Shown here: positions 14,391-15,233 of the stretch, in pieces | Numbering within the stretch: the first letter of the stretch is position 1 | Layout of the letters: the number at the start of each line of letters is the position of its first letter | Assembly (NCBI GenBank): GCA_041662785.1 | Contig: JBAZRW010000003.1 | Span: forward strand, 142,531 to 206,530 | DNA: 64,000 nucleotides | Direction: 5' to 3' | DNA from: Bdellovibrionales bacterium | GTDB taxonomy: Bacteria; Pseudomonadota; Alphaproteobacteria; UBA9219 | The notes under the pieces: generated by a model | Told to the model about the DNA's origin: nothing | What the model saw: only the letters and a program-made list of their open reading frames with translations | Database searches by the model: none | Made by a program: the position numbers and the translations under genes

Positions 14391-14402
14391 GACTATAATA
14401 CA

Positions 14403-14693
14403 ATGACTGGCGGATATTTTTATATTCTTGCCAGTCAGAGAAACGGGACACTTTATGTTGGCGTTACGAACGATTTAGCAAGACGCGTGGCGGAACATAA
14501 GGAAGGCAAGATAAAAGGGTTTTCGACGCGTTACGGGATTAAGACGCTGGTTTATTACGAAGTTTATGATCGCATTCTTGATGCGATTGCTCGTGAAAAA
14601 GGCGTCAAGGAATGGAAACGCGCTTGGAAGTTGGAATTGATCGAGAGCACGAATCCGGAATGGAGGGATTTGTATCTTGATCTAAACAAATAG
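14403..14693 (+). CDS. free-standing GIY-YIG nuclease (YhbQ/UPF0213-like)
   Basis: 96 aa, GYFYILASQRNGTLYVGVTNDLARRVAEH = GIY-(10)-YVG motif. Lies 12 nt after the rpoB stop with a TATAAT directly upstream of the ATG. Confidence 0.8.
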   Translation: MTGGYFYILASQRNGTLYVGVTNDLARRVAEHKEGKIKGFSTRYGIKTLVYYEVYDRILDAIAREKGVKEWKRAWKLELIESTNPEWRDLYLDLNK

Positions 14694-14694
14694 C

Positions 14695-14800
14695 GTCATT
14701 CCGGCGCAAGCCGGAATCCAGCGCCGAGTGTCCACGAGGCGTATGAGTCATAAGCGCCGCAGACGCGGCGCACTGGATCCCGACTTTCGTCGGGATGACG
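14695..14800. repeat. MITE-like palindromic repeat, family B copy (inverted relative to 39297)
   Basis: GTCATTCCGGCGCAAGCCGGAATCCAGC ... GCACTGGATCCCGACTTTCGTCGGGATGAC. The core is the reverse complement of the core at 39330-39380. Confidence 0.75.
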
Positions 14801-14877
14801 CAAGGGATGAGGTTTGGCGAAATAGAGCGAGAGTTGTTATAACGAATACGATGCAGAGGAATAGGAGAATAATCGCG

Positions 14878-15207
14878 ATGCCAATGACAAAGCAAATGCG
14901 TTTTGATGTGAGCAAACTGCCAGAAGGCAAGTATACGGCCTTTGTGCAGGCGCGTCTTGTTTCTGATTGGCAGCGAGTGGCCGAAGAGCTTGAGAAAGTT
15001 GGGGGTGGCATTTATGCGACGAATAATGTTTCGCGTATCGTGGATGTCAGGGGATGCAATAAAAAGGATCTTCTGGCAATAGCTGCTAGCGATTCCGCAT
15101 GGCGAATTCTTCCCGTTCGCGAGGATAACAAAATTTTGGTGATGCGCGCACATGTTCACCATTTGGTACAAGGCAACAACCTACCTTCGAAATTGAATAT
15201 CGCCTAA
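14878..15207 (+). CDS. hypothetical protein (109 aa) between GIY-YIG gene and rpoC
   Basis: ORF 14728-15207 trimmed to the ATG with AGGAG 10 nt upstream; the Arg-rich upstream part is encoded by the MITE. No recognisable domain. Confidence 0.35.
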
Positions 15208-15233
15208 GCGAAGCGTCTTATCGGGAGCGACAA

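Follow-up and report, generated by a model that had tools for sequence, protein, structure and literature searches.

The rpoB-rpoC spacer

The genes rpoB and rpoC described here lie in a stretch of 64,000 nucleotides (nt) of contig JBAZRW010000003.1 (hereafter the window, meaning the whole stretch at its full length). NCBI files the source under 'Bdellovibrionales bacterium', in an order to which it also assigns Micavibrio; among the matches listed for the RpoB C-terminus the best are to Alphaproteobacteria, and the source is probably a Micavibrio-like alphaproteobacterium. The spacer between them holds a gene for a small GIY-YIG nuclease, a palindromic hairpin repeat and a small open reading frame (ORF), ORF109. 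The nuclease and the repeat belong together: members of the nuclease family usually lie between hairpin ends of the kind that makes up the repeat, an oriented association that is family-wide and seen across bacteria. The features of the spacer and of its flanks are as follows (positions are those of the window; aa, amino acids; bp, base pairs).

10107-14390, plus strand: rpoB, 1427 aa, the upstream flank, from the ORF list and with Pfam RNA_pol_Rpb2 domains 1-7
14379-14399, plus strand: left 21-nt direct repeat, GCAGCGGAATAGGACTATAAT, which covers the rpoB stop codon and an AGGA Shine-Dalgarno-like motif before the nuclease gene
14403-14693, plus strand: GIY-YIG nuclease gene, 96 aa, Pfam PF01541 (E 5e-16), starting 12 nt past the rpoB stop
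14693-14801, no strand assigned: palindromic hairpin repeat, 109 bp, like the dRS3 repeats of the Neisseria intergenic mosaic elements (NIMEs) and like a miniature inverted-repeat transposable element (MITE), directly abutting the nuclease stop codon
14802-14852, plus strand: post-repeat spacer, the final part of a 453-nt block (14400-14852) that is missing from the relative L179
14853-14873, plus strand: right copy of the 21-nt direct repeat, GCAGAGGAATAGGAGAATAAT, a remnant duplicate of the 3' end of rpoB that supplies the AGGAG ribosome-binding site of ORF109
14878-15207, plus strand: ORF109, 109 aa, with AGGAG upstream, ending 26 nt before rpoC
15234-19421, plus strand: rpoC, 1395 aa, the downstream flank, with Pfam RNA_pol_Rpb1 domains 1-5 and a 26-nt leader that is identical in L179

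The left direct repeat is made up of the last 12 nt of rpoB and the next 9 nt. At 843 bp, the rpoB-rpoC gap of the window is unusual. Among the matches listed for a broad search with the RpoB C-terminus as query, 79 other proteobacterial rpoB-rpoC loci have gaps of at most about 470 bp and mostly about 100 bp (approximate lengths), and a GIY-YIG gene is present in none of these 79 spacers. An earlier, sequence-only reading of this DNA had described a large insertion with a nuclease, a repeat and a small ORF and had called so long a spacer rare; both statements are upheld, with the features at the coordinates that it gave. The repeat that it named a MITE (a family-B palindromic repeat, 14695-14800) was also found, with an extent of 14693-14801. 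The spacer is best explained as a composite of two unrelated additions, namely a nuclease-plus-repeat block and a separate, fast-evolving small gene.

Hairpin ends frame the nuclease family

Relatives of the window nuclease are numerous (at least 7996 in the databases, nearly all of 94-110 aa). To describe their surroundings we used 80 random loci from metagenomes, with nucleases 54-69% identical to that of the window. The sequence GTCATNCC lies within 150 bp upstream of the nuclease gene in 27 of 72 loci, and its reverse complement within 150 bp downstream in 27 of 76. The background density of this sequence is 0.2 per kb (both strands), roughly 25-fold below that in the nuclease flanks. An unbiased alignment of upstream against reverse-complemented downstream flanks gave significant inverted repeats in 45 of 68 loci. 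Counted over 99 nuclease copies, a left hairpin end is present in 59 and a right one in 52.

These ends are inverted hairpins of 26-29 nt with the form GTCAY-stem-loop-stem-RTCCA, the same arm type as in the window repeat. The usual layout runs from the target through GTCAY-stem-loop-stem-RTCCA, 15-40 nt, the gene from ATG to stop, a further 0-40 nt and the inverted hairpin back to the target, so that a typical hairpin-gene-hairpin unit measures about 400-450 bp. The nuclease gene is often the sole content between two hairpin ends; at other loci a complete gene-less two-arm palindrome lies on one or both sides of it. At canonical nuclease copies we saw no short target-site duplication of fixed length, and several contigs carry two nuclease copies within 12 kb. 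We found no paper linking the nuclease family with hairpin repeats in the searchable literature, which misses most subscription journals.

The stems vary from locus to locus yet pair, with 97.7% of cells paired in a hairpin set pre-filtered for pairing and compensatory changes at five of eight pairs. Two classes of hairpin are seen, one of 26 nt with a GNRA-type loop and one of 29 nt with a CTTG-type loop, and these classes follow protein similarity: in 49 of 54 cases a nuclease and its nearest neighbour share one class (permutation p < 0.0005). Most of the loops in the 26-nt arms are of the GNRA type, i.e. GAAA, GCAA, GGAA and GTAA. GNRA loops would stabilise hairpins in RNA and in single-stranded DNA alike, and a role at the RNA level may be conceivable.

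The repeat of the window belongs to the 26-nt class, with the arms GTCATTCCGGCGCAAGCCGGAATCCAG and its inverted partner. Its left arm (14695-14721) is GTCATTCCGGCGCAAGCCGGAATCCAG, its right arm (14773-14799) is CTGGATCCCGACTTTCGTCGGGATGAC, and the inner hairpin is GCGCCGCAGACGCGGCGC. Taken as a whole, the arms of the repeat are 54 nt long and 72% complementary, and as RNA the repeat has a folding energy of -65 kcal/mol (z = -6.2). It matches no Rfam family; a known RNA or a terminator was considered and rejected on this ground and for the lack of a T-run. Related copies occur in the window at about 19606, 23257, 25693, 39315-39402 and 52470; one nuclease gene stands against many repeat arms.

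Cultured isolates carry the same combination. In Sinorhizobium meliloti the nuclease gene is found downstream of hfq-hflX; three palindromic repeats precede it and a fourth follows, and an inner GCGCCGC-GTCT-GCGGCGC hairpin is common to these repeats and to the window repeat. The S. meliloti repeats may be the published RIME or Sm repeats. A homolog in Neisseria gonorrhoeae (NZ_CP119142.1, 2.17 Mb) is 56% identical and is matched at one place in the record. Of the 12 dRS3-type GTCATTCCCGCGCAGGCGGGAATC arms in a 40-kb N. gonorrhoeae stretch, 11 lie within 750 bp of the nuclease gene. This homolog sits inside a dense dRS3/NIME cluster (positions 19264-20605 of locus L182) and has no annotated feature in NZ_CP119142.1, a record listed as a plasmid yet chromosome-sized at 2.17 Mb.

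The dRS3 element has been described as a 20-bp inverted repeat, ATTCCC-N8-GGGAAT, flanking variable units of 50-150 bp (PMC1797815). The window arms ATTCCGGCGCAAGCCGGAAT and ATCCCGACGAAAGTCGGGAT have this form, with a sixth base that varies. NIMEs have been reported as specific to Neisseria and absent elsewhere, and the enzyme acting on them has been postulated to be an unidentified recombinase, possibly a phage transposase (Bentley et al., 2007; PMC1797815).

The nuclease protein

The window protein matches Pfam PF01541 over residues 4-77 (E 5.4e-16, 59 bits against a cut-off of 22.6). In an alignment of 28 homologs, the residues Y7, Y18, G20, R28, H32, E53 and E65 show no variation or a conservation of 90% or more, the Asn N84 is invariant or nearly so, and all of these residues are kept in the window protein. 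The catalytic residues of the superfamily are one Tyr each from GIY and YIG, the Arg, and a Glu that binds the metal, and the window protein has them intact. A C-terminal motif, KEWKRxWK...NPxW.DLY, is conserved across the subfamily and is also carried by the window protein.

The AlphaFold model of the protein has a predicted local distance difference test score (pLDDT) of 92.7. Its best Foldseek matches are the UPF0213 protein BH0048 (1zg2, E 7e-4) and Slx1 (probability 0.92-0.99, root mean square deviation 2.3-2.8 A), with the UvrC N-terminal domain a weaker match. At the level of sequence the similarity to solved UPF0213 proteins is weak (1zg2, E 0.0023; 1ywl, E 0.0082), and no specific NCBIfam model fits. 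The subfamily of the window nuclease thus looks, from its sequence, like a sister to YhbQ proper, and the earlier label 'YhbQ-like' is right in a loose sense: UPF0213 proteins are among the closest folds, while the sequence match is weak (E 0.002-0.008).

No DNA-binding domain is present, the whole protein of 96 aa consisting of the GIY-YIG domain (4-77) and short helices. No transposase family in Pfam or NCBIfam matches it, and it is not of the HUH/Y1 type. Among 50,697 phage records the family gave one weak match (43% identity, 79% coverage). In a plasmid collection, 34 of the 35 records with a match are non-mobilizable. Most of these replicons are very large, and each is matched at one or two places. 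Homologs that are 55-69% identical occur in very different bacteria, including Candidatus Uhrbacteria and Burkholderiales. The GC content at third codon positions (GC3) is 0.46 in the nuclease gene vs 0.62 in host genes.

Because it is small, has no DNA-binding extension and belongs to a family nearly absent from phages, the window protein is, judging from sequence and model, probably an active, minimal, Slx1-like nuclease of a chromosomal family. The suggestion that it resembles the free-standing homing endonucleases of phages is not borne out, given its 96 aa, the missing DNA-binding module, the likeness to Slx1 and UPF0213 and the single weak phage match. A survey of the GIY-YIG superfamily in 2006 treated stand-alone prokaryotic Slx1-like proteins as vertically inherited and, citing others, mentions a predicted role for them in the repair of double-strand breaks (PMC1564403).

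History of the locus

Nine further loci or groups of loci carry close homologs of the window nuclease, four of them between rpoB and rpoC (percentages are identities to the window nuclease).

L003/L004, 72%: rpoB, nuclease, repeat, rpoC
L005, 74%: rpoB, 131-aa ORF, repeat, nuclease, repeat, rpoC
L166-L170, 73%: rpoB, 205-aa ORF, complete hairpin-bounded element, rpoC
L172/L173, 73%: rpoB, nuclease, repeat, rpoC
L001, 81%: nuclease between trmD and rplS
L171, 70%: nuclease downstream of ssb, with a 187-aa ORF intervening
L174, 68%: nuclease directly behind ssb
L175, 68%: nuclease directly behind purA
L177, 68%: nuclease behind an amidase gene

None of the 80 random family loci adjoins rpoB or rpoC, and occupancy of this junction is therefore a trait of the clade of the window. 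RpoC is 86-91% identical among the five nuclease-bearing rpoB-rpoC lineages, with synonymous sites saturated. The ratio of nonsynonymous to synonymous substitution rates (dN/dS) of the nuclease is 0.07-0.18 against copies at the same junction in other lineages, and the gene has stayed functional over a long period. A recent arrival, which the earlier reading had implied, does not agree with this purifying selection or with the copies of 72-74% identity that four more distant lineages hold at the junction.

The closest relative found, L179 (GCA_017973835.1), is 97.7% identical in RpoB and 97.6% in RpoC, with 91% nucleotide identity in rpoB/rpoC and a synonymous divergence (dS) of 0.45. In L179 the order is rpoB, 5 nt, ORF108, 26 nt and rpoC, with neither nuclease nor repeat between, and the empty-site sequence includes GCAGAAAGATTGGGAGACTAATCGCAATG. 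Presence and absence are thus polymorphic at one site, which is filled in the window and empty in L179-L181. L179 has a single copy of GCAGAAAGATTGGGAGACTAAT before its small ORF; in the window GCAGCGGAATAGGACTATAAT (14379-14399) is followed by the nuclease, the repeat, 51 nt, GCAGAGGAATAGGAGAATAAT (14853-14873) and the small ORF. The two 21-nt copies of the window agree at 18 of 21 positions, above all 100 shuffles, and the right copy aligns, as read by eye, with the rpoB 3' end of L179 and the spacer before ORF108. Because L179 has a single 21-nt copy and neither nuclease nor repeat, the nuclease-plus-repeat block is a 453-nt indel, with the end of rpoB duplicated over 21 nt at its borders.

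A second footprint is found in L166-L170, where a 43-nt duplicate of the rpoC start (L166, 4881-4923) lies between the 205-aa ORF and the left hairpin end of the complete element, in five independent assemblies. Each footprint suggests either recombination that was homologous at one junction and illegitimate at the other, or break repair, at a site enclosed by two highly conserved genes. The nuclease and repeat behave as movable, as had been proposed when the block was called a mobile cassette: they are absent from L179 and bounded by the 21-nt direct repeats, and in L166 the 43-nt duplicate adjoins the element. The post-repeat spacer of the window has a borderline similarity to the spacer between nuclease and rpoC in L005, equalled by 2 of 300 shuffles and the sole such alignment.

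Unrelated ORFs without family matches lie directly behind rpoB in L005 (5437-5832, 131 aa) and L166 (4230-4847, 205 aa), and small genes specific to single lineages seem to gather at the rpoB-rpoC junction of this clade. A second recurring site is seen downstream of ssb, which is divergent from uvrA and lies upstream of the nuclease in both L171 and L174. The nuclease gene of L175 starts on the very base with which the purA gene call ends.

Expression

At all loci with called genes, the nuclease gene is co-oriented with both of its neighbours. A promoter and terminator scan gave no terminator-like or promoter-like site on the plus strand of the window spacer, and an AGGA lies 10 nt ahead of the nuclease ATG. 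From this arrangement we infer that the nuclease would be co-transcribed with rpoB and translated by coupling. Read-through of the cassette by rpoC transcription, as the sequence-only reading had it, agrees with the co-orientation of all genes and the lack of a terminator-like site in the spacer; transcription of rpoC would then pass through the repeat hairpin, and this hairpin might serve in processing or stability. A leaderless nuclease start, also proposed there, is not supported. The candidate promoter, a TATAAT at 14394-14399, has no -35 element, ends 3 nt before the ATG, was not called by the scan and lacks conservation among relatives.

The small ORF

Of the six frames, that of ORF109 scores highest for coding, with a value near the lower limit of real genes. 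Its good ribosome-binding site (AGGAG) and its place at 14878-15207 on the plus strand had been read correctly; the gap to rpoC is 26 nt and not the 27 nt first given. An exhaustive HMMER scan gave one true homolog, the protein P0122, which is ORF108 of L179-L181 (58% identical, E 2e-31). The two proteins differ with a dN/dS of 0.47 and one in-frame indel, and their leaders to rpoC are identical. Because of this single homolog, the dN/dS, the in-frame indel and the shared rpoC leader, ORF109 is judged to be a real, fast-evolving and lineage-restricted gene, independent of the nuclease.

ORF109 has no match in Pfam, NCBIfam, PHROGs or PADLOC. Its single-sequence AlphaFold model is poor (pLDDT 57), and Foldseek returned nothing below E 0.2. 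A word-indexed search had given the query alone, and the status of a true orphan was rejected when the HMMER scan gave ORF108. A third hit, to an 834-aa protein, was discarded as spurious, since on inspection it looked like a low-complexity repeat protein. The extra ORFs of 131, 205, 187 and 312 aa in relatives were also considered as kin of ORF109; they are unrelated to it and to one another.

Proposed explanation and alternatives

On balance, we lean towards the explanation that the nuclease is the cognate structure-specific enzyme of the GTCAY hairpins. The enzyme would nick or cut repeats extruded as hairpins or cruciforms, as Slx1 recognises branched DNA; the repeats, along with the DNA beside them, would afterwards be copied, moved or deleted by the repair and recombination of the host. 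Such a process would resemble the relation of RAYT transposases to REP/REPIN repeats, the use of flanking homology by a homing nuclease, or homing into a dispersed repeat. Gene-less palindromes would be deletion derivatives or 'empty' forms of the gene-carrying unit. In the clade of the window the nuclease gene would have lost its left hairpin end; because it sits 12-30 nt behind rpoB, it would be expressed by read-through, probably with translational coupling to rpoB. The block would have been kept for long at the junction in several diverged lineages, yet gained or lost by illegitimate recombination, because the closest relative lacks it and the 21-nt duplication of the rpoB end bounds it. 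The sequences show the anatomy of the spacer, the family-wide pairing of nuclease with hairpins, the intact catalytic residues, the purifying selection, the difference in presence and the duplications; we infer that the nuclease works on the hairpins, which way the indel went, and that the genes are co-transcribed. A wider proposal, that minimal Slx1-like GIY-YIG nucleases are the trans-acting enzymes of widespread hairpin repeats (Neisseria dRS3/NIMEs, Sinorhizobium-type repeats and those of the window), is more tentative, and we hold it to be possible and somewhat doubtful.

Several points weigh against this explanation. The link between nuclease and hairpins is, as far as sequence comparison goes, positional. 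Shared host ancestry could by itself explain why hairpin class follows the protein, and pre-filtering for pairing inflates the paired fraction of the covariation set. The window copy is itself an incomplete unit, without a left hairpin end: rpoB stops 12 nt ahead of the gene, and a complete gene-less repeat is present on the 3' side only. GIY-YIG enzymes hydrolyse DNA and are not known to join strands; mobility must therefore lean on host repair, and the route is speculative. The 453-nt indel could be an insertion in the lineage of the window or an inter-repeat deletion in L179. The nuclease in more distant relatives favours loss in L179 by recombination between the repeats, and the 21-nt duplication and low GC3 fit insertion or allelic recombination. 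L179 was seen over 12 kb only, and it may carry the nuclease elsewhere. Finally, the source of the window is a metagenome-assembled genome, and repeats are easily misassembled.

Other explanations account for part of the evidence. The nuclease could be a classic free-standing homing endonuclease, like the Seg enzymes of phage T4, with the rpoB-rpoC junction as its homing site and the nearby hairpins incidental; empty alleles would be cut and then filled by repair, with the conserved rpoB and rpoC as homology arms. This would suit the difference in presence among close relatives at a fixed site between highly conserved genes, the relic gene-end duplicates in two lineages, the low GC3 (0.46 vs 0.62 for the host), and nuclease similarities that depart from those of RpoC, the closest homolog (81%) lying at trmD-rplS. 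We nevertheless consider it unlikely. A catalytic core of 96 aa has no DNA-binding domain to provide site specificity, its fold is nearest to Slx1/UPF0213 and not to I-TevI, and 50,697 phage records hold one weak match. The family also occurs at many unrelated loci (0/80 random ones at rpoB-rpoC), and the strong, oriented association with hairpin ends would be left unexplained.

A little less probable again is that the gene is an ordinary, vertically inherited repair nuclease of the Slx1/UPF0213 type, lost in L179, and that the repeats merely fill intergenic space. Stand-alone Slx1-like proteins have been treated as vertically inherited (PMC1564403), and strong purifying selection, a position conserved in four other lineages and the one or two matching places per replicon in isolate records are all in keeping with such a gene. 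However, it would not account for hairpin ends that are enriched about 25-fold in the flanks with fixed orientation and spacing, for a gene often alone between two of them, or for several contigs with two copies inside 12 kb. Close homologs at differing loci (trmD-rplS, ssb, purA and the amidase operon) are a further difficulty, and 55-69% identity across very different bacteria suggests horizontal spread. The idea that the nuclease and ORF109 form a two-gene module (toxin/immunity or nuclease/inhibitor) is largely refuted, and we give it very little credence. Adjacency and co-orientation in the window are all that speaks for it; the only homolog of ORF109 lies between rpoB and rpoC without a nuclease, other nuclease spacers lack ORF109 or carry unrelated ORFs of 131 or 205 aa on the other side of the nuclease, and the defence-system library gave no match. 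The small ORF as a partner, inhibitor or immunity protein, as it was first read, is therefore not borne out.

Comparison with known systems

A close parallel to the proposed pairing of enzyme and hairpin is offered by the REP/REPIN repeats and their RAYT transposases, reportedly described by Nunvar in 2010 and by Bertels and Rainey in 2011. In both cases a single or low-copy gene stands amid many short palindromic hairpin repeats, is flanked by its own inverted repeats and is far outnumbered by them; the repeats have a conserved short 5' head, a co-varying stem and frequent inverted doublets. The RAYT enzyme, however, is a cut-and-rejoin transposase of the HUH/Y1 type, whereas the nuclease here has a hydrolytic GIY-YIG fold with a putative action on hairpins, and the repeat head is GTCAY here and GTAG in REP.

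With the dRS3/NIMEs of Neisseria there is a shared form of hairpin arm, ATTCC(C/G)-N8-(C/G)GGAAT (PMC1797815), and a homologous nuclease gene lies inside an N. gonorrhoeae dRS3 cluster. In both, the repeats cluster and are associated with recombination and variable DNA. Unlike the Neisseria elements, the arm type described here is found in an alphaproteobacteria-like metagenome-assembled genome and in many other bacteria, and the candidate enzyme is a GIY-YIG nuclease instead of the postulated recombinase.

Free-standing GIY-YIG homing endonucleases of phages (T4 Seg, relatives of I-TevI) share with the window nuclease the GIY-YIG core, the polymorphism in presence and absence, a place between conserved operon genes and expression by read-through. 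They differ in that the nuclease here has no linker or DNA-binding domain, is chromosomal and is framed by inverted hairpin repeats. The UPF0213/YhbQ and prokaryotic Slx1-like proteins (1zg2, 1ywl) are alike in their minimal domain and size and give the best sequence and fold matches, although sequence similarity is weak (E about 0.002) and the subfamily of the window has its own C-terminal motif. MITEs derived from insertion sequences (IS) resemble the system in that terminal inverted repeats are common to short elements without a gene and to a longer unit that carries one; here, in contrast, no known transposase is encoded, the terminal repeats are themselves hairpins and no fixed target-site duplication is seen (21 nt in the window, 43 nt in L166). 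Since an HUH transposase and a DNA-binding domain are both missing, the nuclease-hairpin system belongs neither to REP/REPIN-RAYT nor to the homing endonucleases.

The intergenic DNA of bacteria is filled with short palindromic repeats, among them the dRS3/NIMEs of Neisseria, and these repeats mark hot spots of recombination. If the wider proposal is true, a partnership like that of REP and RAYT would exist on a different, purely hydrolytic nuclease fold, and the hairpin-gene-hairpin unit of roughly 400 bp would be among the smallest self-contained mobile or recombination-promoting units known. A tiny, easily purified nuclease tied to repeats across phyla makes the question of the repeat enzyme directly testable. 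Variable cargo in the form of the nuclease, the repeat and small genes specific to a lineage is tolerated even at the rpoB-rpoC junction, and recombination that is anchored in these two genes, the most conserved of the cell, would exchange it. This bears on phylogenetics based on rpoB and rpoC, and on how new small genes reach high expression.

The surrounding window

Downstream of rpoC, the window carries about 1.1 kb of extra DNA (19430-20620) before a CMD-family gene, where L179 has a gap of 76 nt. Within it lies a 220-aa ORF (19747-20409) without a Pfam match, with a tail-to-head pair of hairpin arms on each side. These pairs, at about 19569-19640 and 20479-20560, have a conserved spacer of roughly 30 nt, and the same type of pair recurs near 30500 and 44224.

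The order secE-nusG-rplKAJL-rpoBC is broken in the window (6915-27078). There, rpoB follows a divergent RNase E/G gene (6915-9494, minus strand), and nusG (23841), rplK (25915) and rplA (26368) lie downstream of rpoC; L005 retains rplJ-rplL directly before rpoB. Between nusG and rplK are a gene for a solute-binding protein (24392-25252) and hairpin repeats at 25443-25514 and 25697-25850. Between tRNA-Gly and tRNA-Trp, a tRNA-like match at 23021-23090 (minus strand) has a score equal to the Rfam threshold (29.1 bits) and is absent from the ARAGORN calls. It adjoins a hairpin repeat at 23153-23300 and may be a degraded tRNA.

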